From Alphaproteobacteria bacterium (GTDB lineage: Bacteria; Pseudomonadota; Alphaproteobacteria; Bin95), in NCBI GenBank assembly GCA_963665325.3, contig OZ224045.1:2048001-2112000 (forward strand): 64,000 nt of DNA. Direction: 5' to 3'. The translations under genes and the position numbers were made by a program. The notes under the pieces were generated by a model. That model worked only from the letters and a program-made list of their open reading frames with translations, did not search any database and had not been told where the DNA came from. Below, piece by piece: positions 5,133 to 61,360 of the stretch; the first letter of the stretch is position 1; every line of letters begins with the position of its first letter.

Positions 5133-5567
5133 TCAGAAGGGAACGGGATCGCTGTCGTTGAGGCCGGTGGGCTCGGGCGCCGGGGCCGGTTGGGCCGCGG
5201 GCTGCGGAGCGTCGCCGGGCTTGTCGAGGAAGGACACCTGGCTGCCCGGGATGACCATGATCTCGGTGGCGAAGCGGTCGGTCTGCTCGCCTTCCTTGCG
5301 CCAGCGCCGGGTCTTGAGCGTGCCCTCGACGAAGACGAGCCGGCCCTTGCGACCGTGCTTCTCGAACATGGTGACGAGGCCCTGCTGGAAGGTGACGACC
5401 TGGTGCCACTCCTGGGAGTCGACGCGCTCGCCCGACTGCTTCGAGACGTAGCTCTCGTCGGTGGCGACGCGCAGCTTGGCGATCTTGGTGCCGTTGGTGA
5501 GGGTGACGATTTCGGCGTCAGCGCCGAGGCGCCCGATGAGTTCGACGCGGTTCAATCCGAAAGCCAT
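5133..5567 (-). CDS. ssb: Single-stranded DNA-binding protein (copy 1)
   Basis: LNRVELIGRLGADAE...EWHQVV...KGRLVFVEGTLKTRRW; acidic C-terminal tip DSDPVPF. Confidence 0.95.
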   Translation of the reverse strand: MAFGLNRVELIGRLGADAEIVTLTNGTKIAKLRVATDESYVSKQSGERVDSQEWHQVVTFQQGLVTMFEKHGRKGRLVFVEGTLKTRRWRKEGEQTDRFATEIMVIPGSQVSFLDKPGDAPQPAAQPAPAPEPTGLNDSDPVPF

Positions 5568-5661
5568 GATGGCCTCCTCTGTTTGACGATGGCTGAAAGT
5601 GAACCGAGCGACCGGATCGTCCGACCCGATCATCGTTCAGTTCGAAAAAGCGCAAGCTTCC

Positions 5662-5788
5662 CTAAAACTTGAAACCGCGCGTGACGGCAAGAGAGGTAGT
5701 AGCCGGTGAGTTGGAGGCGGGGCAGCTGGGCGACGGAAGAGGCGGTAGTGGGTCGGCACGGGTGAGCATGGAGATCACCGTTCCGAGG
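5662..5788 (-). pseudogene. 3' fragment of a small membrane-protein gene interrupted by transposon copy 1
   Basis: Removing the element and one CGAGG copy gives a continuous frame ...SIGLAIYLGTVISMLTRADP...GFKF*. Confidence 0.5.
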
Positions 5789-5872
5789 TGAGTGTGCTCT
5801 CGGTATCTGATGGCGGGATGGTCACGTTGTTCGATGGTTTTCAGGCGTCGGGCCGGGCGTGACGGCGGGGGT

Positions 5873-5995
5873 GTCGGACGGCCGTCGGCGCGTCAAGCCG
5901 CTTCGCGGCTCCTGCGCTGCGCTCCGGCCCTTCGGGTGACCCGCCGCCGTCCCTCCGACGGAGTGCATCCATGGCCGTAAGCAAGCTTCCGGCCA
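5873..5995. other. Multi-stem hairpin structure in the transposon's distal non-coding end (present in all three copies)
   Basis: 23-bp imperfect IR (5873-5895 / 5937-5959) encloses AGCCGC-TTC-GCGGCT and CCC-TTCG-GG hairpins; a further hairpin TGGCCG.AAGC/GCTT.CGGCCA at 5972-5995. Confidence 0.6.
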
Positions 5996-6034
5996 CGGGC
6001 CGGCCGCTTTACGCAGTGTGACAATGGGAGCGGT

Positions 6035-6095
6035 GTTACCCGTTACCGTTACCCTCTCTCCCTAGGGGTTCGAGGCGGTAACGGTTTTCGGTAAC
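6035..6095. repeat. Iteron-like GTTACC x3 / GGTAAC x2 inverted array at the 3' end of the helicase gene
   Basis: GTTACC at 6035, 6042 and 6048; GGTAAC at 6077 and 6090, facing each other across the stop codon. Confidence 0.75.
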
Positions 6096-7060
6096 GTGTC
6101 CCTGCGGTCGTTGCCGTTGAGGGCGGCGAGGCGGTATCCGCCTTCGGATGCGCGCTCGACGCGTCCTTCGCGGACGAGCCTGTGCAGCGCCTCGGCGACG
6201 GTTGCGGGCCGGGTTGCCGCGCGCTCGCGGATCCGGCGCTGGGAGAGCGGCGCGTCGGCGTCGGCGAGGGCCTGCAGGATGCGCCGTTCGGGGGTATCCG
6301 GCTCCGGCGCCTGGTCTTCCGGCGTCTCGCGCAACCGCAGGGCGGGGCGCTCGTCGTCGTCGGCGAGTTCGATCTCGAGGTCTTCGAGGCCAGGGGCGTC
6401 GCGATGCTCGACGGTCATGAGGATCTGGCGGTCTCGCCGGCGCAGGTACAGATTCGAATCGCCCCAGGCGTGAAGTTCGCTGCTGCCGCGCAGCGCCTGC
6501 CCGGGCCGGGAGCCGCCGCTCTTTCGTGCGTGATGGACGAGGAGGACGGCGGTTTCGAAGCGGCGCTGTATGTCGCGCAGGAAGCCCAGCATGGGGGCGA
6601 CCTCGGCGACGGTATTTTCGTCGACGCCGTGCAGGCGCACGAGGGGGTCGAGGACGACGAGGCGGGGTGAGACGCGCTCCACCGTCTCGACCAGGCGCTG
6701 GCGATCGGCGCGATGGTCGAGACGCAGCGTGGGCACGTCGATGACGGCGATGTCGAGGGTCTCGAACGCGGTGCCTGCCGCCTTTGCGATGCCCTGGAGG
6801 CGTGCGCGCACGATATGGCCGGCGTCCTCGGCGGCGAACAGCAGCACGGGGCCGCTTGCGGCGGGACGGAAGTGGCGCAGGCAGGGGACGCCGGCGGCGA
6901 CCGCGACGGCGATGTCGAGTGCGAGGAAGGATTTGCCGCACTTGGGCTCGCCGCCGACGATGCCGACGCCCTGCTCGGACCACAACGCCTCGACCATCCA
7001 GCGGCGCGCCTGGGGGCGCTCTTCGAGCTCCGCCGGCGCCCGTGTCGGGAAGCCCTTCAC
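6062..7060 (-). CDS. AAA_25 / RepA-like (RecA-fold) helicase with C-terminal wHTH (transposon orf4)
   Basis: GTG start overlaps the upstream stop (GTGA); Walker A GGEPKCGKS, FAAED, Walker B LVVLDP, LLVHHARK, LRGSSELHAW; C-terminal LSQRRIRE...TVAEALHRLVREGRV. Confidence 0.88.
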   Translation of the reverse strand: MKGFPTRAPAELEERPQARRWMVEALWSEQGVGIVGGEPKCGKSFLALDIAVAVAAGVPCLRHFRPAASGPVLLFAAEDAGHIVRARLQGIAKAAGTAFETLDIAVIDVPTLRLDHRADRQRLVETVERVSPRLVVLDPLVRLHGVDENTVAEVAPMLGFLRDIQRRFETAVLLVHHARKSGGSRPGQALRGSSELHAWGDSNLYLRRRDRQILMTVEHRDAPGLEDLEIELADDDERPALRLRETPEDQAPEPDTPERRILQALADADAPLSQRRIRERAATRPATVAEALHRLVREGRVERASEGGYRLAALNGNDRRDTLPKTVTASNP

Positions 7061-7890
7061 CGCCGCGCCCTCCTCGGCTTGGCGGGTTCGCCCAGGGTCT
7101 CGATGAAGAGCTTCTCGTCGAGGACCTCGCGCTCCTTCTCGGCGGCGGCGGCGAGCAGGGCGTCGGCCATGACGGTGAGCGCCCGCGGGTTGCCGTCGGC
7201 ATGGGCGACCAGGGTGTCCTTGAGGCCCGCGGTCATGAGGCCGGGATTGCCGGCCTGCTCGATCAGATGGTCGAGCAGGGCCGCGAGGTCGCCGGCCTCG
7301 GCCTTGGTCATGACCAGGCGCTGGCGGATGCGCGAGGCGATGGGCTGCAGATCGGGCTGGCGGAGCTTGTCGAGCAGGCGCGTGTCGCCGGCGAGGACGA
7401 CCGAGAGGATGGCGCGCGAGTCGAAGTCGGTCGAAGCCAGCAGGCGGATCTCGGAGAACACCGAGGGCAGCAGCTCCTGGGCCTCGTCGACGAGCACGAC
7501 GGGGCGCATGCGGGTATCGTCGACATGGGCGAGCCAGCGCTCGCGCAGGCTTTTGAAGCTGGCCCAGCGGTTGTTGTACATCAGGTCGACGCCGAACATC
7601 TCGCCGATCTCGCGGTAGAAGTCGGACAGCCGGGAGGAGGGATGGGTGATGGCGGCGATGCTGAGCCCCTCGCAGCGGCCGAGACGGTCGGCGAGCAGGC
7701 GCAACGCCACACTCTTTCCGGCGCCGGGCTCGCCGGCGATCAAGGCGAAGCCGCCCTGGCGCACCAGGTGGCGCTCGATCCTGAGGCAGAAGCTGTCGAC
7801 GGCAGGCGTCGCCATGAGACTGTCGACCGGCAGGTCGGTGGCGAAGGGGTTCCACTTGAGCCCGTAGAAGGTGAGCAGTTCCCGGTTCAT
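7057..7890 (-). CDS. ExeA/TniB/TnsC-like AAA+ ATPase (transposon orf3)
   Basis: YGLKWNPF N-terminus, Walker A GEPGAGKS, Walker B VVLVDEAQ, sensor GNPR; ATGA overlap with the transposase. Confidence 0.9.
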   Translation of the reverse strand: MNRELLTFYGLKWNPFATDLPVDSLMATPAVDSFCLRIERHLVRQGGFALIAGEPGAGKSVALRLLADRLGRCEGLSIAAITHPSSRLSDFYREIGEMFGVDLMYNNRWASFKSLRERWLAHVDDTRMRPVVLVDEAQELLPSVFSEIRLLASTDFDSRAILSVVLAGDTRLLDKLRQPDLQPIASRIRQRLVMTKAEAGDLAALLDHLIEQAGNPGLMTAGLKDTLVAHADGNPRALTVMADALLAAAAEKEREVLDEKLFIETLGEPAKPRRARR

Positions 7891-9362
7891 GGCGCATCTC
7901 CCCGATCTTCGTCCTCGCCCGGACCGGGCGTCTTGTCATGGGGCAGCCAGGCCGGCGGCAGGCCGGTTGCGGCCTGGGCGTCGAGCATGCCCTTGAGCAG
8001 CGGCGGAAGTTCCCCCGTCCCCGCGCCGCCATTGCCATCGTTGCCGCCGGGGCCGGCGGGACGGCGCACGCCATCGGCGTTGCCGCGCTTGTCGAGGGGG
8101 TACAGCGTGCACAGGCGCTCGCCGCCTCGACCGTCGATCAGATCGACGCTGGCGAGGTTCCAGCGCGCGTAACGGATCCAGGCCTCGCGCAGGTGGCGCC
8201 ACGGCTGTGGCACCTGGTAGCGGATGCCCTCGACCGAGACGGTGCCGTCCGAGCGCCTGAGCGTGCGCTTCCTGGTGATGCGGAAGGCCGCCTTGAGCTC
8301 GGCCGAGCCGGGGCAGGATCTCGACGCGTCGACGCTCCCGGCCAGGCGTTGATGCGGCGTCATGCCGAGCTCGCGGTGCTTGCGGCGGTGATAGTCCTGC
8401 TCCAGCCAGGCGATGGTGGCGTCGTTGAGCATCTTCAAGGTAAGCGCGTCGACGCCTTCGAGCTGAGCCATCAGGCGCGATTCGACCGTGCCCCAGAACG
8501 ACTCGATCTTGCCGTTCTGATGGGGGCTGTAAGCGAGCGTCGTGACCCCCGCGATGCCGAGCCGGTGCAACCCCTCCTCGACCTCGCCCGCGGTCATCGC
8601 CGCGCCGTTGTCGGTCAGCAGGGACCTCGGCAGACCGCGCTTCATGAAGGCCTGGCAAAGGCCGTGGACGAACACCTCGGCGGTCTCGGCGAGGTACCAC
8701 TGAAGGTGGCAGCCGAGGCGCGAGTGGTCGTCGAGGAAGCCGAGCAGGATCGGCGTCTTCCACTCGCCCGAGGCGGTCAGCACGCGACGCTTGGCGCTGT
8801 GCATGTCGGCGTGCCACAGGGCGTGAGAGCGCGAGACCTCGTAGCTCAATACCTCGCGGGCTTCGACCGCCGGCCTGGCCTCGCTCTCATGCCACTTGCG
8901 CCGGCGCTTGCGTACCAGCCCGCGAGCCCGCATCGCCCGGGTCAGCGTCGCGTAGGACGGTATCGGGCCGAGCTCGGGATCGGCCTCGACCCGCGCGGCC
9001 AGATTCTCGTGATGAAGCTGCGCCGACCACGACGGATGCGCCCGGTACTGCTCGTGCAGCGCCTCGATCAGCGTCGGCGACATCGCGCGCGGGCGCCCGG
9101 CATCGGCGCGCGGGCGCCGCTTGAGCGCCCCCACCGGATCGTTGTCCGCCGCCCGCGCCTGGTAGTACCAGCGCTCGATCGTGGACACCGCGAAGCGCAC
9201 CCGGCCCTTGCCGGACGGGTGATCCCACTCGCGTTCGGCAAGCCGCTCAAGCTCGGCGTGCAGCCGCCCCGCCGGCGGCGGCGAGGCCAGAAGCGGCCCG
9301 ACCACCGCGAAGCGCAACCGCGCCCACCGGTCGCGACGCTCGCTCCCGTCGTTGCTGTTCAT
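7887..9362 (-). CDS. DDE (rve-type, IS481/TnsB/Mu-like) transposase (transposon orf2)
   Basis: HTH STIERWYY; catalytic LWHAD / LLTDNGA / NGKIESFW; C-terminal DGTVSVEGIRYQVP. Confidence 0.93.
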   Translation of the reverse strand: MNSNDGSERRDRWARLRFAVVGPLLASPPPAGRLHAELERLAEREWDHPSGKGRVRFAVSTIERWYYQARAADNDPVGALKRRPRADAGRPRAMSPTLIEALHEQYRAHPSWSAQLHHENLAARVEADPELGPIPSYATLTRAMRARGLVRKRRRKWHESEARPAVEAREVLSYEVSRSHALWHADMHSAKRRVLTASGEWKTPILLGFLDDHSRLGCHLQWYLAETAEVFVHGLCQAFMKRGLPRSLLTDNGAAMTAGEVEEGLHRLGIAGVTTLAYSPHQNGKIESFWGTVESRLMAQLEGVDALTLKMLNDATIAWLEQDYHRRKHRELGMTPHQRLAGSVDASRSCPGSAELKAAFRITRKRTLRRSDGTVSVEGIRYQVPQPWRHLREAWIRYARWNLASVDLIDGRGGERLCTLYPLDKRGNADGVRRPAGPGGNDGNGGAGTGELPPLLKGMLDAQAATGLPPAWLPHDKTPGPGEDEDRGDAP

Positions 9363-9410
9363 TCCGGCATCCCCCTCGCTGCTTCGTGGAGGTGCCGATG
9401 ATGCGGTGCC

Positions 9411-10025
9411 CTATCCGTGCATCATAGAAACGCTTTCTGCGGGCGAAGCCGGACCTGCGCCGAGCGCGCAAAAGCCGGTCCACGGCATCAGCCAGACCAG
9501 GCTCCGCAGCAGCCGCGAGCGGAAGCCACGGCCCCGCATGATGCGCAGCAGCCGGCGCAGCGGCGCCTCTTCGGGCGGCGCCGCCAGCTCGCCCCGTCTC
9601 GCCTGCCACTCCCGGGTCAGCGGGAAGGCTTCCAGCCACCAGCGCCGCCAGCGCTTCAGCGTCGAGGCCGGAACCCCGCACCGCCGCGCGATCGTCTGCA
9701 ACCGCGCGCCGCCGGCCACAGCCAGCGCACTCACCACAAGGAACAGCGCCCCGACGTAAAAGCGCCTGCCGAAGAAACGCACCGACGGCGGCTTCACGCG
9801 GCGTCGGCACACCGAACAGCACAGGCTGAAGCGCCGAACGTCGTTCCGAAGATTCGCCGCCAGACCGTGCGGCTTGCGCGGGTAGCTCGCGCTGTGAAGC
9901 GCGCCGCCGCAGCGCGGGCAACCCGCCGCCCGGCACGCCTCCGCCTCGGCCGCGTCGACCTGCTTCAGAAAATCCCAAACCCGGGCGTTGGAGAGATTGG
10001 AGTGCCGGAACAGCTTGTGCGACAT
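9411..10025 (-). CDS. Zn-finger + HTH protein (transposon orf1, DUF6431-like)
   Basis: CPRCGG...CCSVC Cys cluster, PPSVRFFGRRFY, HTH LQTIARRCGVPASTLKRWRRWW. Confidence 0.8.
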   Translation of the reverse strand: MSHKLFRHSNLSNARVWDFLKQVDAAEAEACRAAGCPRCGGALHSASYPRKPHGLAANLRNDVRRFSLCCSVCRRRVKPPSVRFFGRRFYVGALFLVVSALAVAGGARLQTIARRCGVPASTLKRWRRWWLEAFPLTREWQARRGELAAPPEEAPLRRLLRIMRGRGFRSRLLRSLVWLMPWTGFCALGAGPASPAESVSMMHG

Positions 10026-10172
10026 TGGGGCCGTCTCAGGTTGATGTCACTGTCACCGAGACAAGCCCTCCGGCGGCCTTCTTGCAAGATCGCCGGGGGG
10101 CACCCAATCCAAAACCTCGATTAATCCGAGCCGATCAGCCCCTGATCGCCGCTGAAAGCCTGCGCCCGCTCA

Positions 10173-10470
10173 CGAGGTAGATGGCGAGCCCGATCGAGAC
10201 GATGAGGATGCAAAGCCGGACGTAGAAGCGCGTGATGAGGGCAATCGCGTCGAGCATGCGGCAAGGCACGTTGGTGAGGAGGTTGCGGAGGCGCGCGAAG
10301 CGCCGGCGGGGGATACGAGAGTAGCTGGGGGAGGAGGAGTGTCGGCGATCGAGACAGGGAGTAGAGGAGTCCGGCGAGGCGGTGGCGTGGCGCAGGACGG
10401 CGTCGAAATCGCACGGCGGAATGGCGGGAACTGACGGTTTCTGGTCCGGGACGGGGATGAGTGCGCGCAT
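10173..10470 (-). pseudogene. 5' fragment of the small membrane-protein gene interrupted by transposon copy 1
   Basis: GGAGG RBS; frame continues across the TSD into 5788-5662. Confidence 0.5.
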
Positions 10471-10603: not shown

Positions 10604-11050
10604 TCAGGCGGCCATGGGGTAGGATTCGTCGAGCGACGGGAGATCGTCGGAGGTCGGTGTCGGCGTGGGGTCGGCCGGGGCGCCTGCGACGGCGCCGGCG
10701 GGCTTGTCGAGGAAGGACACCTGGCTGCCCGGGATGACCATGATCTCGGTGGAGAAGCGGTCGGTCTCCTCGCCCTCCTTGCGCCAGCGGCGGGTCTGCA
10801 GCTTGCCCTCGACGAAGACGAGCCGGCCCTTGCGCCCGTGCTTCTCGAACATGGCGACGAGGCCCTGCTGGAAGGTGACGACCTGGTGCCACTCCTGGGC
10901 GTCGACGCGCTCGCCCGACTGCTTCGAGACGTAGCTCTCGTCGGTGGCGACGCGCAGCTTGGCGATCTTGGTGCCGTTGGAGAGGGTAACGATTTCGGCG
11001 TCAGCGCCGAGGCGCCCGATGAGTTCGACGCGGTTCAATCCGAAAGCCAT
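10604..11050 (-). CDS. ssb: Single-stranded DNA-binding protein (copy 2)
   Basis: Near-identical OB fold to copy 1; different tail (...DESYPMAA). Confidence 0.95.
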   Translation of the reverse strand: MAFGLNRVELIGRLGADAEIVTLSNGTKIAKLRVATDESYVSKQSGERVDAQEWHQVVTFQQGLVAMFEKHGRKGRLVFVEGKLQTRRWRKEGEETDRFSTEIMVIPGSQVSFLDKPAGAVAGAPADPTPTPTSDDLPSLDESYPMAA

Positions 11051-11141
11051 GATGGCCTCCTCTGTTTGACGATGGCTGAAAGTGAACCGAGCGACCGGAC
11101 CCTCCGGCCCGGTCATCGTTCGGTTCGAAATAGCGCAAGCT

Positions 11142-11312
11142 TCACTCAAACTCTGGGCGGATGTTGTCGGCGGGGCCGATCCAGAGCGGAGGAAGGACGT
11201 CGCGGATCTCGCGAGAGGACATGCCGATCTCTGCGAGGAGCTCCGGAGCGTTGAGGGGTTCGCGATCCGACGACGCGGAGGCGCGGTCGACGTCGATGGT
11301 GTCGATATACAT
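11142..11312 (-). CDS. Small hypothetical protein
   Basis: MYIDTIDVD... 56 aa; upstream GGAAAGCC motif. Confidence 0.4.
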   Translation of the reverse strand: MYIDTIDVDRASASSDREPLNAPELLAEIGMSSREIRDVLPPLWIGPADNIRPEFE

Positions 11313-11539
11313 GGCAGCCCTTTCTTCTGCTGGCCCGGTATTCCAGGCGGTTGCAGAAGCGGGGCTTTCCTCAAACTTGTTCGCGGGCGAGCGGATGTGG
11401 GGGGCGGAAACGGGTGGGGAAACAGAAAGAGCGAGACGCGGTTGAAGGGCAGTTTCGGGCGAGATTGTACGACCCGCCAGTTCCACCTTCAGGTGCAAGA
11501 ACGACTCTGGGAAGCGAGGTGACAGCGAAGTGCGGGGCG

Positions 11540-27483: not shown

Positions 27484-27951
27484 GGCTGGATGCTCTCCGG
27501 GGCGATTGCCGGGGACCGGGCCGCGGATCGGCGATCGGCGAGTGTTTCGATGGTTCGCGCCAGGGCCCGGACGCGCTTCTCCTGCCGGTCGGGAAAGTGG
27601 GCCGCTCCGAGTGTTTGGCGGATCAGGCGGTGGAGGGCGTCGAAGCCGTCCTGGCGGGGGATAAGGTTGAAGTCGCCGCCGGCTGCTTCGTACATGCGGC
27701 CGTAATCGGCCTTGATCTTTTCCCAGGTGCGCTCCGGCGTGTCGTCCATGTGCCGGAACCAGCGTTCGACGGCGCGGCGGAAGATGCGGTCGAAATCAAT
27801 GAGGTGAGTCTTGTCGGGTGCGGGGCAGGCGCGTTCGCAGTCGGCCTTGAAGGTTTCGAGTATGGCGATGCCGACTCGCGGAGGCACCAGGCGGTCATTC
27901 TTGATGATATCCATGAGGCGCGAGGCATACGCGGGCGGCTTCAGCTCGCGT
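27480..27951 (-). pseudogene. 3' fragment of a helical-repeat family gene interrupted by transposon copy 2
   Basis: Removing the element and one GCGT copy restores ...AGIQWIR-ELKPPAYASRL-MDIIKNDR in frame; contains TWEKIKADY. Confidence 0.85.
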
Positions 27952-28224
27952 TGAGTGTGCTCTCGGTATCTGATGGCGGGATGGTCACGTTGTTCGATGG
28001 TTTTCAGGCGTCGGGCCGGGCGTGACGGCGGGGGTGTCGGACGGCCGTCGGCGCGTCAAGCCGCTTCGCGGCTCCTGCGCTGCGCTCCGGCCCTTCGGGT
28101 GACCCGCCGCCGTCCCTCCGACGGAGTGCATCCATGGCCGTAAGCAAGCTTCCGGCCACGGGCCGGCCGCTTTACGCAGTGTGACAATGGGAGCGGTGTT
28201 ACCCGTTACCGTTACCCTCTCTCC

Positions 28225-29223
28225 CTAGGGGTTCGAGGCGGTAACGGTTTTCGGTAACGTGTCCCTGCGGTCGTTGCCGTTGAGGGCGGCGAGGCGGTAT
28301 CCGCCTTCGGATGCGCGCTCGACGCGTCCTTCGCGGACGAGCCTGTGCAGCGCCTCGGCGACGGTTGCGGGCCGGGTTGCCGCGCGCTCGCGGATCCGGC
28401 GCTGGGAGAGCGGCGCGTCGGCGTCGGCGAGGGCCTGCAGGATGCGCCGTTCGGGGGTATCCGGCTCCGGCGCCTGGTCTTCCGGCGTCTCGCGCAACCG
28501 CAGGGCGGGGCGCTCGTCGTCGTCGGCGAGTTCGATCTCGAGGTCTTCGAGGCCAGGGGCGTCGCGATGCTCGACGGTCATGAGGATCTGGCGGTCTCGC
28601 CGGCGCAGGTACAGATTCGAATCGCCCCAGGCGTGAAGTTCGCTGCTGCCGCGCAGCGCCTGCCCGGGCCGGGAGCCGCCGCTCTTTCGTGCGTGATGGA
28701 CGAGGAGGACGGCGGTTTCGAAGCGGCGCTGTATGTCGCGCAGGAAGCCCAGCATGGGGGCGACCTCGGCGACGGTATTTTCGTCGACGCCGTGCAGGCG
28801 CACGAGGGGGTCGAGGACGACGAGGCGGGGTGAGACGCGCTCCACCGTCTCGACCAGGCGCTGGCGATCGGCGCGATGGTCGAGACGCAGCGTGGGCACG
28901 TCGATGACGGCGATGTCGAGGGTCTCGAACGCGGTGCCTGCCGCCTTTGCGATGCCCTGGAGGCGTGCGCGCACGATATGGCCGGCGTCCTCGGCGGCGA
29001 ACAGCAGCACGGGGCCGCTTGCGGCGGGACGGAAGTGGCGCAGGCAGGGGACGCCGGCGGCGACCGCGACGGCGATGTCGAGTGCGAGGAAGGATTTGCC
29101 GCACTTGGGCTCGCCGCCGACGATGCCGACGCCCTGCTCGGACCACAACGCCTCGACCATCCAGCGGCGCGCCTGGGGGCGCTCTTCGAGCTCCGCCGGC
29201 GCCCGTGTCGGGAAGCCCTTCAC
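28225..29223 (-). CDS. AAA_25 / RepA-like helicase-wHTH (transposon copy 2)
   Basis: Same translation as 6062-7060. Confidence 0.88.
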   Translation of the reverse strand: MKGFPTRAPAELEERPQARRWMVEALWSEQGVGIVGGEPKCGKSFLALDIAVAVAAGVPCLRHFRPAASGPVLLFAAEDAGHIVRARLQGIAKAAGTAFETLDIAVIDVPTLRLDHRADRQRLVETVERVSPRLVVLDPLVRLHGVDENTVAEVAPMLGFLRDIQRRFETAVLLVHHARKSGGSRPGQALRGSSELHAWGDSNLYLRRRDRQILMTVEHRDAPGLEDLEIELADDDERPALRLRETPEDQAPEPDTPERRILQALADADAPLSQRRIRERAATRPATVAEALHRLVREGRVERASEGGYRLAALNGNDRRDTLPKTVTASNP

Positions 29224-30053
29224 CGCCGCGCCCTCCTCGGCTTGGCGGGTTCGCCCAGGGTCTCGATGAAGAGCTTCTCGTCGAGGACCTCGCGCTCCTT
29301 CTCGGCGGCGGCGGCGAGCAGGGCGTCGGCCATGACGGTGAGCGCCCGCGGGTTGCCGTCGGCATGGGCGACCAGGGTGTCCTTGAGGCCCGCGGTCATG
29401 AGGCCGGGATTGCCGGCCTGCTCGATCAGATGGTCGAGCAGGGCCGCGAGGTCGCCGGCCTCGGCCTTGGTCATGACCAGGCGCTGGCGGATGCGCGAGG
29501 CGATGGGCTGCAGATCGGGCTGGCGGAGCTTGTCGAGCAGGCGCGTGTCGCCGGCGAGGACGACCGAGAGGATGGCGCGCGAGTCGAAGTCGGTCGAAGC
29601 CAGCAGGCGGATCTCGGAGAACACCGAGGGCAGCAGCTCCTGGGCCTCGTCGACGAGCACGACGGGGCGCATGCGGGTATCGTCGACATGGGCGAGCCAG
29701 CGCTCGCGCAGGCTTTTGAAGCTGGCCCAGCGGTTGTTGTACATCAGGTCGACGCCGAACATCTCGCCGATCTCGCGGTAGAAGTCGGACAGCCGGGAGG
29801 AGGGATGGGTGATGGCGGCGATGCTGAGCCCCTCGCAGCGGCCGAGACGGTCGGCGAGCAGGCGCAACGCCACACTCTTTCCGGCGCCGGGCTCGCCGGC
29901 GATCAAGGCGAAGCCGCCCTGGCGCACCAGGTGGCGCTCGATCCTGAGGCAGAAGCTGTCGACGGCAGGCGTCGCCATGAGACTGTCGACCGGCAGGTCG
30001 GTGGCGAAGGGGTTCCACTTGAGCCCGTAGAAGGTGAGCAGTTCCCGGTTCAT
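29220..30053 (-). CDS. ExeA/TniB-like AAA+ ATPase (copy 2)
   Basis: Same translation as 7057-7890. Confidence 0.9.
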   Translation of the reverse strand: MNRELLTFYGLKWNPFATDLPVDSLMATPAVDSFCLRIERHLVRQGGFALIAGEPGAGKSVALRLLADRLGRCEGLSIAAITHPSSRLSDFYREIGEMFGVDLMYNNRWASFKSLRERWLAHVDDTRMRPVVLVDEAQELLPSVFSEIRLLASTDFDSRAILSVVLAGDTRLLDKLRQPDLQPIASRIRQRLVMTKAEAGDLAALLDHLIEQAGNPGLMTAGLKDTLVAHADGNPRALTVMADALLAAAAEKEREVLDEKLFIETLGEPAKPRRARR

Positions 30054-31525
30054 GGCGCATCTCCCCGATCTTCGTCCTCGCCCGGACCGGGCGTCTTGTC
30101 ATGGGGCAGCCAGGCCGGCGGCAGGCCGGTTGCGGCCTGGGCGTCGAGCATGCCCTTGAGCAGCGGCGGAAGTTCCCCCGTCCCCGCGCCGCCATTGCCA
30201 TCGTTGCCGCCGGGGCCGGCGGGACGGCGCACGCCATCGGCGTTGCCGCGCTTGTCGAGGGGGTACAGCGTGCACAGGCGCTCGCCGCCTCGACCGTCGA
30301 TCAGATCGACGCTGGCGAGGTTCCAGCGCGCGTAACGGATCCAGGCCTCGCGCAGGTGGCGCCACGGCTGTGGCACCTGGTAGCGGATGCCCTCGACCGA
30401 GACGGTGCCGTCCGAGCGCCTGAGCGTGCGCTTCCTGGTGATGCGGAAGGCCGCCTTGAGCTCGGCCGAGCCGGGGCAGGATCTCGACGCGTCGACGCTC
30501 CCGGCCAGGCGTTGATGCGGCGTCATGCCGAGCTCGCGGTGCTTGCGGCGGTGATAGTCCTGCTCCAGCCAGGCGATGGTGGCGTCGTTGAGCATCTTCA
30601 AGGTAAGCGCGTCGACGCCTTCGAGCTGAGCCATCAGGCGCGATTCGACCGTGCCCCAGAACGACTCGATCTTGCCGTTCTGATGGGGGCTGTAAGCGAG
30701 CGTCGTGACCCCCGCGATGCCGAGCCGGTGCAACCCCTCCTCGACCTCGCCCGCGGTCATCGCCGCGCCGTTGTCGGTCAGCAGGGACCTCGGCAGACCG
30801 CGCTTCATGAAGGCCTGGCAAAGGCCGTGGACGAACACCTCGGCGGTCTCGGCGAGGTACCACTGAAGGTGGCAGCCGAGGCGCGAGTGGTCGTCGAGGA
30901 AGCCGAGCAGGATCGGCGTCTTCCACTCGCCCGAGGCGGTCAGCACGCGACGCTTGGCGCTGTGCATGTCGGCGTGCCACAGGGCGTGAGAGCGCGAGAC
31001 CTCGTAGCTCAATACCTCGCGGGCTTCGACCGCCGGCCTGGCCTCGCTCTCATGCCACTTGCGCCGGCGCTTGCGTACCAGCCCGCGAGCCCGCATCGCC
31101 CGGGTCAGCGTCGCGTAGGACGGTATCGGGCCGAGCTCGGGATCGGCCTCGACCCGCGCGGCCAGATTCTCGTGATGAAGCTGCGCCGACCACGACGGAT
31201 GCGCCCGGTACTGCTCGTGCAGCGCCTCGATCAGCGTCGGCGACATCGCGCGCGGGCGCCCGGCATCGGCGCGCGGGCGCCGCTTGAGCGCCCCCACCGG
31301 ATCGTTGTCCGCCGCCCGCGCCTGGTAGTACCAGCGCTCGATCGTGGACACCGCGAAGCGCACCCGGCCCTTGCCGGACGGGTGATCCCACTCGCGTTCG
31401 GCAAGCCGCTCAAGCTCGGCGTGCAGCCGCCCCGCCGGCGGCGGCGAGGCCAGAAGCGGCCCGACCACCGCGAAGCGCAACCGCGCCCACCGGTCGCGAC
31501 GCTCGCTCCCGTCGTTGCTGTTCAT
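30050..31525 (-). CDS. DDE transposase (copy 2)
   Basis: Same translation as 7887-9362. Confidence 0.93.
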   Translation of the reverse strand: MNSNDGSERRDRWARLRFAVVGPLLASPPPAGRLHAELERLAEREWDHPSGKGRVRFAVSTIERWYYQARAADNDPVGALKRRPRADAGRPRAMSPTLIEALHEQYRAHPSWSAQLHHENLAARVEADPELGPIPSYATLTRAMRARGLVRKRRRKWHESEARPAVEAREVLSYEVSRSHALWHADMHSAKRRVLTASGEWKTPILLGFLDDHSRLGCHLQWYLAETAEVFVHGLCQAFMKRGLPRSLLTDNGAAMTAGEVEEGLHRLGIAGVTTLAYSPHQNGKIESFWGTVESRLMAQLEGVDALTLKMLNDATIAWLEQDYHRRKHRELGMTPHQRLAGSVDASRSCPGSAELKAAFRITRKRTLRRSDGTVSVEGIRYQVPQPWRHLREAWIRYARWNLASVDLIDGRGGERLCTLYPLDKRGNADGVRRPAGPGGNDGNGGAGTGELPPLLKGMLDAQAATGLPPAWLPHDKTPGPGEDEDRGDAP

Positions 31526-31573
31526 TCCGGCATCCCCCTCGCTGCTTCGTGGAGGTGCCGATGATGCGGTGCC

Positions 31574-32188
31574 CTATCCGTGCATCATAGAAACGCTTTC
31601 TGCGGGCGAAGCCGGACCTGCGCCGAGCGCGCAAAAGCCGGTCCACGGCATCAGCCAGACCAGGCTCCGCAGCAGCCGCGAGCGGAAGCCACGGCCCCGC
31701 ATGATGCGCAGCAGCCGGCGCAGCGGCGCCTCTTCGGGCGGCGCCGCCAGCTCGCCCCGTCTCGCCTGCCACTCCCGGGTCAGCGGGAAGGCTTCCAGCC
31801 ACCAGCGCCGCCAGCGCTTCAGCGTCGAGGCCGGAACCCCGCACCGCCGCGCGATCGTCTGCAACCGCGCGCCGCCGGCCACAGCCAGCGCACTCACCAC
31901 AAGGAACAGCGCCCCGACGTAAAAGCGCCTGCCGAAGAAACGCACCGACGGCGGCTTCACGCGGCGTCGGCACACCGAACAGCACAGGCTGAAGCGCCGA
32001 ACGTCGTTCCGAAGATTCGCCGCCAGACCGTGCGGCTTGCGCGGGTAGCTCGCGCTGTGAAGCGCGCCGCCGCAGCGCGGGCAACCCGCCGCCCGGCACG
32101 CCTCCGCCTCGGCCGCGTCGACCTGCTTCAGAAAATCCCAAACCCGGGCGTTGGAGAGATTGGAGTGCCGGAACAGCTTGTGCGACAT
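31574..32188 (-). CDS. Zn-finger + HTH protein (copy 2)
   Basis: Same translation as 9411-10025. Confidence 0.8.
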   Translation of the reverse strand: MSHKLFRHSNLSNARVWDFLKQVDAAEAEACRAAGCPRCGGALHSASYPRKPHGLAANLRNDVRRFSLCCSVCRRRVKPPSVRFFGRRFYVGALFLVVSALAVAGGARLQTIARRCGVPASTLKRWRRWWLEAFPLTREWQARRGELAAPPEEAPLRRLLRIMRGRGFRSRLLRSLVWLMPWTGFCALGAGPASPAESVSMMHG

Positions 32189-32335
32189 TGGGGCCGTCTC
32201 AGGTTGATGTCACTGTCACCGAGACAAGCCCTCCGGCGGCCTTCTTGCAAGATCGCCGGGGGGCACCCAATCCAAAACCTCGATTAATCCGAGCCGATCA
32301 GCCCCTGATCGCCGCTGAAAGCCTGCGCCCGCTCA

Positions 32336-32794
32336 GCGTATCCATTGGATGCCGGCCCTCGCACCGGGTCCCGGTTCTGGCTCGTCGCCATCATGCTGTT
32401 GCCGGTCGGGCGAAGACGGGGATGTGGGGGCGTCGTCGTCAAGTGGTCTGGGGCTCTCGGCCCAGGGTCCGAAGAAGACAGGCTCGGTGTCGGGCTCGAG
32501 CTGGATGGCGAAGCGGAGACGGTCGTGGTCGTAGACTTCGAACGTGAGGGTGGAGGCGTGTTTGATGAGCTCGTGGTTGGTGTCGTAGTAGGGTTCCGTG
32601 TCGTCTTCTTCGTAGTCGATGCGGCGTTGGTTCTGGCGCCAGCGCTGAAGATCGGTGAGACATTCCTCGCGGGTGGCATAGGTGCGGATGTCTTCCGGCG
32701 GGTCGATATCGTCCGGGAAGTCGGGATCGATTTCGGTGAAGACCGTGGTGAACGGTCGTTCCGGGTCGAGACGAATGTGGAAGGGGAGCGGCAT
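32336..32794 (-). pseudogene. 5' fragment of the gene interrupted by transposon copy 2
   Basis: MPLP...DPERPF...YATREECL.DL.RW...TFEVY; paralogous to the N-terminus of 32829-34508. Confidence 0.85.
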
Positions 32795-48248: not shown

Positions 48249-49506
48249 CAGGCGGCTTCCTTCGGTTCGGGTCCGGCAATGGAGACGGAGATCCTGTTGC
48301 GGTCGATGGTAATGGTGACCGGGCGCTCGCGTGGTGCGATCCAATGGATATGGCGGCATACCATCTCCTTGATCGCGTCGATGGTGGCTTCGTCCTCGGA
48401 GCAGAGCAGCCGGGTCGCGATCCGGTTCGCTTCCAGCATGAAGTCGTTGCGCTGGGTTTCCCAGGCATTGGCTTCGGCATCGTCGGAGTAGCAGAAGAAG
48501 GCGCTGTAGATGAGGTCTGCCAGCTCGAAGGGTTGGAGGTTGCTCGAGGCGGAGACGAGCGGCGCTATCTCCTCGACGTAGCAGTCCTGGTCGCAGGCGA
48601 ACGCCATGTCGGCGTCGGTGACGATGGCCGTCGTGGAACCGTCCGGATGTTGGATCTCCAGATGCATCGTCATGGCGTCGGGGCGAATGCCGGCCGGGGT
48701 GTCGTCTGTCGGGTAGTCTTCGAGGGCACGGCTGTGTTCGCCCGCGATGACTTCGATGCGGACTCCGGTGATCCGCGGCAGGCAATCGTACCAGTCGTAG
48801 CCGGCGAGATCGCTCTCGGGGCGGTAGAGACGCTCGGCGATGCTGGCGCGCTGCGCTGCGCGCCAGAAGGCCTGCGAGAGCGGCGGCTCGTCCTCGAAGT
48901 CGACGACGAGGGCGTCGACCGGGAGGATTTCGGGGGCGGGGTCCTCCTGGTTGTTGCACCAGTCGGCGTTGCGAGGACGCCACGGGTGGAGGTGCGGGGG
49001 CGCCGGGCGGATGTGGATGCCGGCATCGCGGGCGGCCGTCCAGGTCTTGTAGGTGGGCCGGGGATCGGGGTGTGCGGCCATTGCCCTGTAGATGGCGTGG
49101 GTGGAGGCCTCGTGCATGCGAGGGACGAAGGGGGTTGCGACGAGCTGCTTGCGGGCCGGGAGGACGAGCTCCAGCTCGGGACAGTCCCGGACGTCGGCGC
49201 GGATGGACCAGGTCGGGCCGCCTACGGAGGAGATTTCGGGGAAGCCGGTCTCGATCGTGTGGCCGTGGAAGTTGATCGTCGGGTCGTGGAAATGCTTGCG
49301 TCCGTTGACCATGACCCCGAAGTCGATGCCGTGCCATGCCTCACGGTGGACGGCGTCCTGGAGGAAGTCGCGGCGCGGGAGGGTTTCTCCGTCTTCAGGC
49401 GAGTCCGGAAGACCGGAAAGGGTTACAGGGAGCGGGTGGTAGAGGGCGGCCGCTTCGGTGGCTCTCCGGATGTCGAGGACGTGGGAAACGATGAGGAACG
49501 ATATGG
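48248..49506 (-). pseudogene. 3' fragment of a GHKL ATPase gene interrupted by transposon copy 3
   Basis: Removing the element and one TATGG copy restores ...PWPHGTSI-SFLIVSHVLDIRR in frame. Confidence 0.88.
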
Positions 49507-49779
49507 TGAGTGTGCTCTCGGTATCTGATGGCGGGATGGTCACGTTGTTCGATGGTTTTCAGGCGTCGGGCCGGGCGTGACGGCGGGGGTGTCGGACGGC
49601 CGTCGGCGCGTCAAGCCGCTTCGCGGCTCCTGCGCTGCGCTCCGGCCCTTCGGGTGACCCGCCGCCGTCCCTCCGACGGAGTGCATCCATGGCCGTAAGC
49701 AAGCTTCCGGCCACGGGCCGGCCGCTTTACGCAGTGTGACAATGGGAGCGGTGTTACCCGTTACCGTTACCCTCTCTCC

Positions 49780-50778
49780 CTAGGGGTTCGAGGCGGTAAC
49801 GGTTTTCGGTAACGTGTCCCTGCGGTCGTTGCCGTTGAGGGCGGCGAGGCGGTATCCGCCTTCGGATGCGCGCTCGACGCGTCCTTCGCGGACGAGCCTG
49901 TGCAGCGCCTCGGCGACGGTTGCGGGCCGGGTTGCCGCGCGCTCGCGGATCCGGCGCTGGGAGAGCGGCGCGTCGGCGTCGGCGAGGGCCTGCAGGATGC
50001 GCCGTTCGGGGGTATCCGGCTCCGGCGCCTGGTCTTCCGGCGTCTCGCGCAACCGCAGGGCGGGGCGCTCGTCGTCGTCGGCGAGTTCGATCTCGAGGTC
50101 TTCGAGGCCAGGGGCGTCGCGATGCTCGACGGTCATGAGGATCTGGCGGTCTCGCCGGCGCAGGTACAGATTCGAATCGCCCCAGGCGTGAAGTTCGCTG
50201 CTGCCGCGCAGCGCCTGCCCGGGCCGGGAGCCGCCGCTCTTTCGTGCGTGATGGACGAGGAGGACGGCGGTTTCGAAGCGGCGCTGTATGTCGCGCAGGA
50301 AGCCCAGCATGGGGGCGACCTCGGCGACGGTATTTTCGTCGACGCCGTGCAGGCGCACGAGGGGGTCGAGGACGACGAGGCGGGGTGAGACGCGCTCCAC
50401 CGTCTCGACCAGGCGCTGGCGATCGGCGCGATGGTCGAGACGCAGCGTGGGCACGTCGATGACGGCGATGTCGAGGGTCTCGAACGCGGTGCCTGCCGCC
50501 TTTGCGATGCCCTGGAGGCGTGCGCGCACGATATGGCCGGCGTCCTCGGCGGCGAACAGCAGCACGGGGCCGCTTGCGGCGGGACGGAAGTGGCGCAGGC
50601 AGGGGACGCCGGCGGCGACCGCGACGGCGATGTCGAGTGCGAGGAAGGATTTGCCGCACTTGGGCTCGCCGCCGACGATGCCGACGCCCTGCTCGGACCA
50701 CAACGCCTCGACCATCCAGCGGCGCGCCTGGGGGCGCTCTTCGAGCTCCGCCGGCGCCCGTGTCGGGAAGCCCTTCAC
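49780..50778 (-). CDS. AAA_25 / RepA-like helicase-wHTH (copy 3)
   Basis: Same translation as copy 1. Confidence 0.88.
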   Translation of the reverse strand: MKGFPTRAPAELEERPQARRWMVEALWSEQGVGIVGGEPKCGKSFLALDIAVAVAAGVPCLRHFRPAASGPVLLFAAEDAGHIVRARLQGIAKAAGTAFETLDIAVIDVPTLRLDHRADRQRLVETVERVSPRLVVLDPLVRLHGVDENTVAEVAPMLGFLRDIQRRFETAVLLVHHARKSGGSRPGQALRGSSELHAWGDSNLYLRRRDRQILMTVEHRDAPGLEDLEIELADDDERPALRLRETPEDQAPEPDTPERRILQALADADAPLSQRRIRERAATRPATVAEALHRLVREGRVERASEGGYRLAALNGNDRRDTLPKTVTASNP

Positions 50779-53080: not shown

Positions 53081-53128
53081 TCCGGCATCCCCCTCGCTGC
53101 TTCGTGGAGGTGCCGATGATGCGGTGCC

Positions 53129-53743: not shown

Positions 53744-53890
53744 TGGGGCCGTCTCAGGTTGATGTCACTGTCACCGAGACAAGCCCTCCGGCGGCCTTCT
53801 TGCAAGATCGCCGGGGGGCACCCAATCCAAAACCTCGATTAATCCGAGCCGATCAGCCCCTGATCGCCGCTGAAAGCCTGCGCCCGCTCA

Positions 53891-61286: not shown

Positions 61287-61360
61287 TTAGGGTTCTGGAG
61301 GTGGGACGAATAGCGGGCGTACAAGGCTACGCGCGAAAGGTCGGGGCCAGTTTCGAACAT
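61287..61360 (-). pseudogene. 5' fragment of the serine recombinase (catalytic YARYSS)
   Basis: MFETGPDLSRVALYARYSSHLQNP joins in frame to KSIDDQ after IS removal. Confidence 0.9.

Follow-up and report, generated by a model that had tools for sequence, protein, structure and literature searches.

Among described mobile elements, the nearest counterpart of the transposon analysed here is Tn6049, which was reportedly named in 2009 and is a named element without a mechanistic study. In Cupriavidus metallidurans CH34 it is present in 12 copies, without a helicase, and is 'often associated with genomic islands' (PMC2864759). Two other reports describe its ends as imperfect inverted repeats of the TG..CA type accompanied by a 4-bp direct repeat (PMC4739549), and its module as one that 'could not be categorized', a statement still made in 2018 (PMC6210171).

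The element also possesses three traits of the group formed by Mu, Tn552, Tn7 and Tn5053, i.e. an rve DDE transposase, TG..CA ends and a dedicated AAA+ partner. Phage Mu (A/B) and Tn552 (p480/p271) share all three with it; the partner is a separate protein, about 270-310 aa long in pairs of this type, and duplications are about 5 bp in Mu and short in Tn552, compared with 4-6 bp here. PHROG transposition families match the transposase ('transposase', 2.4e-40) and the ATPase ('DNA transposition protein', 1.4e-23) of the element. However, the Tn552-type transposase aligns with that of the element over 362 residues (E 2e-14) at an identity of only 22%, the two ATPases have the Walker A region alone in common, and the element contains neither phage genes nor a resolvase, which Tn552 has. 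To our knowledge, no helicase is encoded by Mu or Tn552. At the level of insertion sequences, the element's transposase scores best against the NCBIfam model of IS481, and PGAP labels the Tn6049 enzyme 'IS481 family'. IS481 elements possess a single gene, and an assignment to this family was rejected (score of 124 bits, cut-off 224; four genes). In IS21, too, a DDE enzyme works with an AAA+ helper, and the duplications vary between 4 and 8 bp; this family was rejected as well (45 bits against a cut-off of 160; ATPase without the IstB_IS21 domain). Tn7 and Tn5053 (TnsABC with selectors, and TniABQ) resemble the element in their DDE enzyme, AAA+ regulator and modular extra part, and in a duplication of 5 bp. 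Unlike them, it contains no resolvase, TnsA or TniQ, for which its four proteins gave no match in Pfam (E <= 0.01) or NCBIfam. In the available sections of a survey of Tn7 target selectors, the RecA, DnaB and RepA types are unmentioned, and the word 'helicase' is used for Cas3 and in one reference only (PMC10293859).

The window, i.e. the whole stretch of 64,000 nucleotides that was analysed, contains three copies of the element, at positions 5789-10172 (copy 1), 27952-32335 (copy 2) and 49507-53890 (copy 3), all with their genes on the minus strand. An earlier note, made from the sequence, had described the copies as apparently identical and their ends as exact. The comparison between copies confirms this: no difference separates them over a length of exactly 4,384 bp (100% identity), the identity breaks off precisely at the element coordinates in all three, and the tips read TGAG...CTCA. 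Each copy is flanked by its own target-site duplication, likewise as described: CGAGG at copy 1 (left 5784-5788, right 10173-10177), GCGT, of 4 bp only, at copy 2 (27948-27951 and 32336-32339), and the 5-bp TATGG at copy 3 (49502-49506 and 53891-53895). The limits of copy 1 are also apparent from contigs of two public runs (X2, X3), which link position 5785 to position 10175 and thereby represent the unoccupied site; the stretch that they skip measures 4,389 bp, i.e. 4,384 + 5. The further claim that each insertion splits a gene which rejoins in frame holds for part of the set. It is clear for copy 3, where the rejoined open reading frame comprises 579 aa and its N-terminal fragment matches HATPase_c_3, and plausible for copy 2 (308 aa, without a family match); for copy 1 the case is weak, the rejoined frame being only 139 aa long and unsupported.

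A whole-genome search revealed a total of 24 copies, spread over all five contigs. Twenty-one of them are identical, two show a single-base difference inside a G-run, which may be an assembly error, and one is broken by a 2,070-bp IS. Perfect direct repeats of 5 bp accompany ten copies, of 4 bp eight and of 6 bp two, so that target duplications range from 4 to 6 bp across the genome; a 5-bp repeat with one mismatch occurs at two copies, and the flanks of another two, unmatched within each copy, match each other crosswise. All 24 copies have an intact orf4, and 23 an intact transposase gene. The copy number, the identity of 21 copies, the intact genes and the empty site in other strains speak for activity. 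We consider it almost certain that the element belongs to the Tn6049 family of DDE transposons and is active; the recent movement proposed in the earlier note is borne out by the same copies and by the empty site of copy 1.

Four genes are read from the minus strand. The product of the first, orf1 (9411-10025, 204 aa), consists of a Zn-ribbon followed by a helical HTH_23 part; the ribbon cysteines C36, C39, C70 and C73 are invariant in 38 sequences. It has no match among solved structures, and the Atlas lead is DUF6431. By tblastn, orf1 was found in 70 of 80 related loci (the best 80 of 523 by likeness to the query), the misses being mostly contigs that begin at the transposase; the gene is family-specific to Tn6049-type elements. 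The DDE transposase (7887-9362, 491 aa) is composed of an HTH_32 domain, an rve core and a conserved C-terminal peptide, and D186, D251 and E287 are invariant in an alignment of three sequences. Pfam reports no Mu-transpos_C domain in it at E <= 0.01. This domain is reported for the transposase of a second lineage, to which we return below, and is annotated in distant plasmid relatives, among them a trio of Tn552 type, in which a resolvase is accompanied by a transposase of 480 aa and an ATPase of 271 aa. The third gene (7057-7890) overlaps the transposase stop by ATGA and encodes an ExeA/GspA-like AAA+ ATPase of 277 aa (AAA_22), which was found, partial in some cases, in all 80 related loci. 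The fourth, orf4 (6062-7060, 332 aa), has a GTG start and overlaps the ATPase stop by GTGA. Both overlaps are as the earlier note gave them, and its domain calls for the four products were right. The non-coding end 5' of orf1 (10026-10172, minus strand, 147 bp) starts with TGAGCGGGCGCAGG; that 3' of orf4 (5789-6061, minus strand, 273 bp) ends with ...CCATCAGATACCGAGAGCACACTCA and yielded no significant fold (z -1.15) and no Rfam match.

The element had been proposed to represent an uncharacterised transposon class. This view is not tenable, since the element has its first three genes, the TG..CA type of its ends and its short duplications in common with Tn6049. The order of orf1, DDE transposase and 277-aa AAA_22 protein ('GspA') is common to both, with identities to the Tn6049 copy of pMOL30 of 40% for orf1 (E 4e-30), 50% for the transposase (over 94% of its length) and 52% for the ATPase (E 2e-98). 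Imperfect terminal repeats of the TG..CA type, a duplication of 4-5 bp, the multicopy state and the association with genomic islands are shared as well. The difference lies in the fourth gene, which in Tn6049 encodes a 71-aa protein without similarity to the 332-aa orf4 product. Tn6049 measures 3.5 kb and the present element is 0.9 kb longer; it falls in the other half of the transposase tree, and the profile of the small protein found no match in it. As the element lacks the small fourth gene and possesses orf4 instead, it constitutes a variant branch of the Tn6049 family, not Tn6049 itself.

The product of orf4 comprises an AAA_25 RecA-fold NTPase domain of the RSF1010 RepA/DnaB-like type (4.6e-36) and a C-terminal winged helix; Walker A, Walker B and further motifs are invariant in 17 sequences sharing 38-76% identity with it. 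The name RepA-like, given in the earlier note, is apt: among solved structures, the RSF1010 RepA helicase is its closest homologue (1g8y, E 1.6e-15), and the fold compares with that of RepA at a TM-score of 0.68, normalised to target length, and an rmsd of 2.5 Å, and the PHROG matches are primase/helicase families. These likenesses point to a RepA(RSF1010)/DnaB-type helicase-like protein. RadA, Rad51 and KaiC match this fold as well, so that helicase activity stays putative. In RSF1010, RepA is a hexameric helicase that acts with the RepB' primase and the RepC initiator, and a pairing of helicase and primase recurs in elements related to this one. However, RepA has no winged helix and belongs to a plasmid, whereas orf4 lies in a transposon in which a search for iterons or origin-like repeats found none.

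Outside the elements, the genome contains no orf4 paralogue, one remnant excepted. In all nine loci with orthologue-level orf4 matches an AAA_22 gene lies directly upstream, and in seven of them (L114-L117, L120-L122) a DDE gene is found further upstream; L118 and L123 show no transposase match within the sequence stretch examined. The 26 loci with merely generic AAA_25 matches, one of them cut by the contig end, have neither an AAA_22 nor a DDE gene nearby. According to our own reading, at least nine of 16 relatives show an overlap between the start of orf4 and the stop of the ATPase gene. This gene neighbourhood suggests that orf4 is an integral module and not a stray passenger.

Within the best 80 of 523 loci, orf4 follows the ATPase gene in 27, and 36 of the scorable relatives do not possess it; these proportions are no population estimates, because the loci were chosen by their likeness to the query. 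The earlier note had held that homologues usually lacking orf4 would speak against its reading, and this is partly the case: relatives without the gene outnumber those with it, and Tn6049, which has none, attained 12 copies. It follows from these two observations that the helicase is unnecessary for the core transposition of the family. In the transposase tree, all 27 orf4 carriers cluster in one half, which comprises 34 rows and includes a few relatives without the gene, and none of the 46 rows of the other half carries it. The orf4 tree shows the same major clades as the transposase tree, and the two genes co-diverge across phyla. In relatives, too, the helicase gene lies inside the element ends, a point that the earlier note had singled out for checking. 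The carriers of orf4 represent a deep, widespread and undescribed branch with members in several phyla.

The short relatives possess in the fourth slot a protein of about 70 aa with an SSB-like acidic Pro-Phe tail, a likeness that concerns a short C-terminal motif. In 27 of 32 such proteins the C-terminus reads Pro-x(0-2)-Phe, and acidic residues mostly stand before this motif; the SSB encoded in the window itself ends in DSDPVPF. According to a profile search, the small protein and orf4 are mutually exclusive, the former being present in 36 loci and in none of the 34 long-variant loci. Some long variants are extended by a further gene. L049 and L050 represent an element of 5,029 bp, which has TGAG..CTCA at its tips and is flanked by duplications of 5 bp. 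Its fifth gene, located inside the ends, encodes DUF3991 + Toprim_2; such a gene also follows orf4 in L038/40/41, L039 and L116. The product contains no recognised zinc-binding primase domain and is therefore no more than a likely primase. In the second lineage, whose DDE transposase carries Mu-transpos_C and is paired with an AAA_22 protein, the gene after the orf4 orthologue encodes a DnaG-type primase, in which a CHC2 Zn-ribbon is combined with Toprim. The element in the window has no primase gene. Members of the second lineage from the same genus contain an orf4 that is 75-77% identical next to an ATPase that is only 27% identical; hence, orf4 passes from one element to another, a behaviour that is compatible with a selfish or independent role as well.

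Based on these observations, we propose that this is a Tn6049-family transposon whose fourth slot couples transposition to replication. By homology, the Mu/Tn552/IS481-like rve transposase cuts the TG..CA-type tips and joins them to the target, which is cut with a stagger of 4-6 bp (mostly 5). The MuB/ExeA-like AAA+ ATPase most likely serves as activator or regulator at the target DNA, and the Zn-ribbon/HTH protein orf1 most likely binds DNA, at the ends or as a regulator. The occupant of slot four would recruit or supply a primosome and thereby couple a branched intermediate, perhaps a strand-transfer fork or else a figure-eight of the copy-out type, to replication. Short forms would borrow the host primosome by means of the SSB-tail mimic, and long forms would bring a helicase of their own, in some cases along with a primase; in both, the element would be copied and the donor copy kept. 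Copying of this kind would explain the 24 copies and their identity, the intact duplications and the lack of a resolvase.

We estimate the probability of this explanation as a whole at roughly one half, and for orf4 itself a role in replication coupling is about an even bet. The idea of replicative copying, already raised in the earlier note, receives indirect support from the RepA homology, the PHROG primase/helicase matches, the Toprim and DnaG neighbours and the SSB-like tail of the alternative in the same slot. What counts against it is that the element lacks a resolvase and yet is found, in 22 of its 24 copies, as a simple insertion flanked by duplications; this pattern disagrees with a plain Shapiro cointegrate pathway, unless the products are resolved by host recombination. 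Furthermore, Tn6049 multiplies without a helicase, so that orf4 is dispensable for the basic reaction, and this element has no primase gene of its own.

It is unlikely that orf4 instead acts as a target selector, immunity factor or regulator, with the winged helix binding the target or the element ends. Together with the MuB-like protein, its own ATPase would then choose or veto targets, in the manner of TnsD/TniQ/TnsE or MuB immunity. The winged helix, the location directly after the AAA+ regulator, often with translational coupling, and the resemblance of the slot-four alternatives to modular Tn7 selectors (PMC10293859) are consistent with such a role. So is the distribution of insertions, since 8 of 24 fall within about 120 kb of an ICE-like island and Tn6049 is often island-associated (PMC2864759). 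Yet the clustering could equally result from tolerated DNA or local hopping, and no common sequence is evident at the insertion sites of the 24 copies. Moreover, target selection leaves unexplained that two unrelated primase-type genes join orf4 in separate lineages, and that an SSB-tail-like protein occupies the same slot.

We find it similarly improbable that an excised circle is replicated by the helicase, aided by the primase-like gene in those elements that have one, with the winged helix as origin binder and a plasmid-like phase before reinsertion, after the model of RSF1010 and its use of RepA, RepB' and RepC. RepA is indeed the nearest solved relative, the combination of helicase, Toprim protein and DNA-binding domain resembles a minimal replicon toolkit, and IS3- and IS481-type enzymes make circles. 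However, searches of the element revealed no iterons or significant structure, it has no primase gene, and the short forms hold nothing able to replicate a circle; the contigs of the public runs include no end-to-end junction, although contigs drop rare forms. Slightly less probable still is that orf4 is cargo without a role in transposition, be it a selfish addiction, anti-defence or host-benefit gene: Tn6049 transposes without it, the module was exchanged between two divergent DDE/AAA+ lineages within one genus and the gene is missing from a few relatives that belong to the orf4 half of the tree, but the co-divergence with the transposase across phyla, the fixed and often translationally coupled position, the detection of orthologues solely beside DDE + AAA_22 pairs, the mutual exclusion with the small slot-four protein and the intact gene in 24 of 24 copies argue against it.

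Returning to replication coupling, we tentatively suggest, at somewhat less than even odds, that a whole group of bacterial DDE transposons, made up of the Tn6049 family and one or more additional Mu-type DDE/AAA+ lineages, possesses a dedicated 'replisome-coupling' slot. In some elements it would be filled by an SSB-tail mimic that captures the host primosome, in others by a RepA-like helicase of the element's own, which a Toprim or DnaG-like primase may accompany. The helicase and the occasional primase-like gene suggest that such elements bring part of the copying machinery along. If this is true, these DDE transposons would provide part of their primosome themselves, and their copying would be independent of the replication-restart loading of the host.

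The boundaries of the transposon were taken as the bases at which identity between its copies stops. In the window, these copies occupy positions 5789-10172 (copy 1, genes on the minus strand), 27952-32335 (copy 2) and 49507-53890 (copy 3), and full identity among the three spans exactly 4,384 bp. An earlier note on this DNA had described three apparently identical copies of that length, and for copy 1 identity indeed ends at precisely the bases it named. The whole assembly (5.58 Mb in five contigs, labelled with C; 67% G+C) contains 24 copies with every contig represented; 21 of them are identical, two have lost one G in a G-run, and one is split by another insertion sequence (IS). The tips of the element read TGAG...CTCA. 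According to the flanks of all 24 copies, a perfect 5-bp direct repeat is present at ten, a 4-bp repeat at eight, a 6-bp repeat at two, and a 5-bp repeat with one mismatch at two. The copies at C2:25283-29666 and C4:930514-934897 have no repeat of their own; their flanks pair crosswise (ccgt / ggtcg), which is the expected outcome of recombination between two element copies. This pattern indicates either such a recombination, with a swap of DNA between the contigs of 196 kb and 1.10 Mb, or a mis-join of the assembly across the repeat.

Contigs from two public sequencing runs, with flanks ~95-97% similar to the window, connect position 5785 with 10175 and thus skip 4,389 bp, i.e. 4,384 + 5; hence the empty site of copy 1 is present in related strains. 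The element itself also occurs in these strains at ~99.7% identity (3 and 11 differences over contigs of 1,174 and 3,235 nt), and depth ratios from such contig-only runs do not represent copy numbers. With the 24 genomic copies and the empty site, the boundaries and the recent mobility of the element, both proposed earlier, are firmly established. A further claim of the earlier note, that all three insertions interrupt genes, is well borne out at copy 3: without the element the two parts form a 579-aa ORF, the N-terminal fragment of which matches HATPase_c_3. For copy 2 (308-aa ORF) the claim is plausible, and for copy 1 it is weak.

The two single-G losses correspond to window positions 8100 and 10100 (element positions 2312 and 4312) and are found in the copies at C1:503215 and C3:175650. 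Both fall within runs of six Gs and are the sole differences in these copies; a frameshift in the transposase would follow from the first. Rather than mutation, homopolymer errors in the assembly may account for both. The other IS, of ~2,070 bp, lies at window 59217-61290 (C1:2107217-2109290), is bounded by terminal inverted repeats with a duplication of CTAG, and contains a 604-aa ORF (window 59368-61182). Twelve full copies are present in the genome, and the one at C1:2290869-2292942 is inserted in a transposon copy at element position 274-277.

In gene content, the window resembles an integrated island of conjugative or plasmid-derived type: among its products are two SSB proteins, DnaN-like, DUF7146/Toprim and YAcAr proteins, a Strawberry-notch-type helicase (AAA_34) and a C5 methylase. 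The SSB genes (5133-5633 and 10604-11374) are 95% identical over 300 nt and lie on either side of copy 1, without which their spacing would be ~1 kb. The island region (C1:1.98-2.10 Mb) has an unusually strong GC skew of ~0.10. Eight of the 24 element copies are clustered there, seven of them in one orientation, which echoes the island association reported for the transposon Tn6049 of Cupriavidus metallidurans and may reflect targeting preference, tolerance or local hopping. Genome-wide, 17 copies are oriented '+' and 7 '-'. GC skew reveals a clear origin or terminus on none of the contigs, and so offers no replication map to which this bias could be related.

In copy 1, the four genes on the minus strand are orf1 (9411-10025; 204 aa, HTH_23 and four invariant cysteines), the DDE transposase (7887-9362; 491 aa, HTH_32 and rve), the ATPase (7057-7890; 277 aa, AAA_22) and orf4 (6062-7060; GTG start, 332 aa, AAA_25 at 4.6e-36 followed by a winged helix). 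The domains found (HTH_23, rve, AAA_22, and AAA_25 with winged helix) agree with the types previously assigned to the four ORFs, and the ATGA and GTGA overlaps between genes were recovered as well. Residues D186, D251 and E287 of the transposase are invariant in an alignment with two relatives. The predicted structure of orf1 is of moderate quality (pLDDT 65.8); it has no PDB match at E <= 0.001 in Foldseek, and the orf1 profile has no meaningful match among PDB sequences. A lead comes from the Atlas, where 32-44% of members in some neighbouring clusters belong to DUF6431. A TniQ-like identity of orf1 was sought through Pfam, with no match. The 273-bp non-coding end has a predicted fold z of -1.15. 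Rfam matches and promoter sites numbered zero in the respective scans, terminator-like sites were no commoner than in shuffles, and a search for origin-like repeats or iterons in the element gave GC-rich noise only.

A tblastn search of plasmids located the transposase at 50% identity on plasmids of C. metallidurans. On pMOL30, a 'transposase' of 181-189 aa comes first, followed in order by an 'IS481 family transposase' (479 aa), an 'AAA family ATPase' (277 aa) and a hypothetical protein of 71 aa; this four-gene neighbourhood is Tn6049. Identity to the Tn6049 proteins amounts to 40% for orf1, 50% for the transposase and 52% for the ATPase, whereas orf4 has no counterpart there. Hence the uncharacterised transposon class envisaged in the earlier note is, in its core, a named family, although one that is indeed unstudied. 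[quoted passage not shown] A Pseudomonas plasmid paper describes its TG..CA repeats as imperfect and 12 bp long and its direct repeat as 4 bp (PMC4739549), and its transposition module 'could not be categorized' in a 2018 paper (PMC6210171).

Among curated transposase models, IS481 scores best, yet remains sub-threshold (124 vs 224 bits), and IS21 scores far below it. A PHROG phage transposase family matches the transposase (2.4e-40) and the PHROG 'DNA transposition protein' the ATPase (1.4e-23), for which 'target DNA activator B' of Mu is a weak PDB match (E 0.056). Distant plasmid relatives are annotated with a Mu transposase C-terminal domain; in one of them, from Staphylococcus aureus SAP017A, a resolvase, a transposase of 480 aa and an ATPase of 271 aa form a Tn552-type trio. 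Its transposase aligns with that of the element over 362 residues (22% identity, E 2e-14), whereas the ATPases have only the Walker A region in common. On the basis of these matches the core is likened to the Mu A/B and Tn552 pairs; it would work as they do, yet it appears to belong to neither family, nor to IS481 or IS21. In the literature we found no earlier description of a helicase/primase module in Tn6049-like or other DDE/AAA+ transposons, with ISfinder, TnCentral, the 2009 Tn6049 paper and supplements outside this search. The observation of the earlier note is thus confirmed and its interpretation supported in part: the element represents a new variant of a family that is known yet uncharacterised, and the branch it stands for is large and had gone unrecognised.

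The description of orf4 as RepA-like, already made in the earlier note, is borne out at two levels. With a 17-sequence profile, the sole strong solved relative is the RSF1010 RepA hexameric helicase (1g8y, E 1.6e-15), and the C-terminus shows a weak likeness to winged-helix domains. The AlphaFold2 model (pLDDT 74.7) matches DnaB, RepA, RadA, Rad51 and KaiC; superposition on RepA 1g8y gives a TM-score (normalised to target length) of 0.68 and an rmsd of 2.5 Å over 226 columns. PHROG matches are to primase/helicase families. Profile and model therefore support a RepA-like, putative helicase. Complex prediction for the ATPase and orf4 scored 0.00 in both runs, which weighs neither for nor against association.

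In a scan of one genome per species, related loci numbered at least 523. The 80 that most resembled the query were kept for analysis, and proportions among these are therefore not population estimates. Many loci lie on 2.7-4.4 kb contigs, as collapsed repeats would give, and the phylum labels of such bins are unreliable. The spread across phyla is nevertheless solid, because long contigs with related loci come from Isosphaeraceae, other Planctomycetota, Verrucomicrobiae and Alphaproteobacteria. At 27 of these 80 loci, an orf4 homologue comes after the ATPase gene. In the transposase tree (80 rows), the 27 rows with orf4 (the element and 26 loci) all fall inside one half of 34 rows, whereas none of the 46 rows of the other half, Tn6049 included, has orf4; overall it is absent in 36 rows and unscorable in 17. 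The major clades of the orf4 tree match those of the transposase tree. It had been asked whether orf4 falls within the ends of homologous elements, and it does: L035/L036, a 4,428-bp element with ~26-bp terminal repeats, is one example in which copies within a genome are identical throughout orf4, which places the gene inside the ends. In 17 orf4 sequences (38-76% identical to that of the element), no variation occurs at the lysines of Walker A, the aspartate of Walker B or further motifs. In the relative L033 (CBDHDI010000017.1), identity to the window element declines from 92% for the transposase through 85% (orf1) and 75% (ATPase) to 68% (orf4), a gradient that suggests recombination between related elements.

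Within the genus of the window, 10 of 16 other species possess an orf4 orthologue (73-83% identity; 12 matches in one of them), and none was found in 24 sampled genomes of other genera. Among 400 sampled genomes of the phylum, AAA_25 proteins of generic type abound, but orthologue-level matches (E <= 1e-25) are rare, occurring in 3 genomes. All nine orthologue-level loci have an AAA_22 gene immediately upstream, and seven a DDE gene further upstream; L118 and L123 show no transposase match in the stretch covered. Conversely, an AAA_22 or DDE gene lies within 1.5 kb of none of 26 weak AAA_25 loci, one of which ends at a contig edge. Candidate homologues are plentiful (at least 7,823 at E <= 1e-5 among 8,000 scored), and PLSDB holds no close one (4 matches, all <31% identity). 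In its own genome, orf4 is intact in all 24 copies, and beyond these the only paralogue is a remnant of a related element at C1:446335-446548, in which the C-terminus of an orf4 homologue survives at 53% identity, together with a stretch that resembles an element end at 83-86% DNA identity. By tree, neighbourhood and genome distribution, orf4 thus constitutes a dedicated transposon-bound clade within the AAA_25 superfamily.

The gene position after the ATPase gene, slot four, has other contents in other relatives. Short forms have there a gene for a conserved protein 59-98 aa in length, recognised at 32 loci by clustering and at 36 by profile, and exemplified by L031:7309-7524, L032:7266-7481 and L092:8283-8480 together with 30 further loci. 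It matches no Pfam family. In 27 of 32 sequences the C-terminus is Pro-x(0-2)-Phe, preceded in most by acidic residues. In bacterial SSB, the C-terminal tip serves to recruit PriA, the chi subunit and further proteins of genome maintenance; the end of the short-form protein has, at the level of sequence, the form of this tip, and an SSB encoded in the window ends in DSDPVPF. The short-form profile matched none of 34 long-variant loci, and the two proteins are therefore mutually exclusive. Longer variants add a gene. A five-gene element of 5,029 bp (L049:5147-10175, also L050; tips TGAGCACG...GTGCTCA, 5-bp duplications) encodes a 276-aa DUF3991 + Toprim_2 protein between orf4 and the element end. 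This gene (46-48% identity) also follows orf4 in L038/40/41, L039 and L116, the last from the window's own genus; relatives with this arrangement, L053 included, measure 5.0-5.2 kb. It is found neither in the window element nor in its genome.

A second DDE/AAA_22 lineage has an orf4 orthologue in the same position (L151:1071-5273; L152:116-4321, minus strand; L150:2507-5594). Its transposase, with a Pfam Mu-transpos_C match, is 28-34% identical to that of the element and its ATPase 27-30%; its upstream ORFs have no homology to orf1. In L151 and L152 the next gene after orf4 encodes a DnaG-type primase (CHC2 zinc ribbon, Toprim), which is placed with the lineage by gene adjacency. In two species of the window's genus, the second-lineage orf4 is 75-77% identical to that of the element, whereas the adjoining ATPase reaches only 27%, a disparity which argues that the orf4 module moved between transposon lineages. 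Helicase and transposon are genuinely associated, and this association is both ancient and modular.

Three contents of slot four can thus be recognized: an SSB-tail-like peptide, a replicative-type helicase, and this helicase with either of two unrelated primase-type proteins. Their common denominator, we infer, is primosome assembly on single-stranded or forked DNA. In phage Mu, conversion of the strand-transfer complex into a replication fork requires the host proteins PriA, DnaB-DnaC and DnaG. Starting from an active DDE transposon whose enzyme pair is Mu/Tn552-like, which makes 4-6 bp duplications and exists in many identical copies, we propose that the Tn6049 family handles this step by one of two routes: the slot-four product would recruit host factors, or the element would supply its own helicase, with or without a primase. 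Either way, the element would be copied and the donor copy kept. As substrate, either a Shapiro-type fork or a copy-out/paste-in figure-eight is conceivable. Mostly simple insertions with intact duplications, and no resolvase in the element, fit the figure-eight; the same pattern also fits a Shapiro-type fork with recombinational resolution afterwards.

Because primase-type genes are added in relatives, a replication role is the best hypothesis for orf4. Two facts count against it: the family core multiplies without any helicase, and the element itself has no primase. Rival readings would make orf4 a target selector or regulator, or a replicator of an excised circle; end-to-end circle junctions were not seen in the contigs of four public runs, and contigs drop rare forms. 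A last rival regards orf4 as cargo.

To our knowledge, the hand-off of branched transposition intermediates to the replisome is understood in detail only for phage Mu, where host restart proteins are needed. Tn6049-type transposons offer natural experiments on this hand-off, since one gene slot is filled by an SSB-tail-like peptide, by a replicative-type helicase, or by such a helicase together with a primase-like protein. Abundance adds to its interest: the related loci, at least 523, spread over several phyla (long contigs from Planctomycetota, Verrucomicrobiota and Alphaproteobacteria), orf4 homologues number thousands, and the family can reach 24 copies in one genome, reshaping replicons. 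Small, highly active elements with loose target preference could become tools, and Tn6049, uncategorised since 2009, gains a place beside Mu and Tn552.
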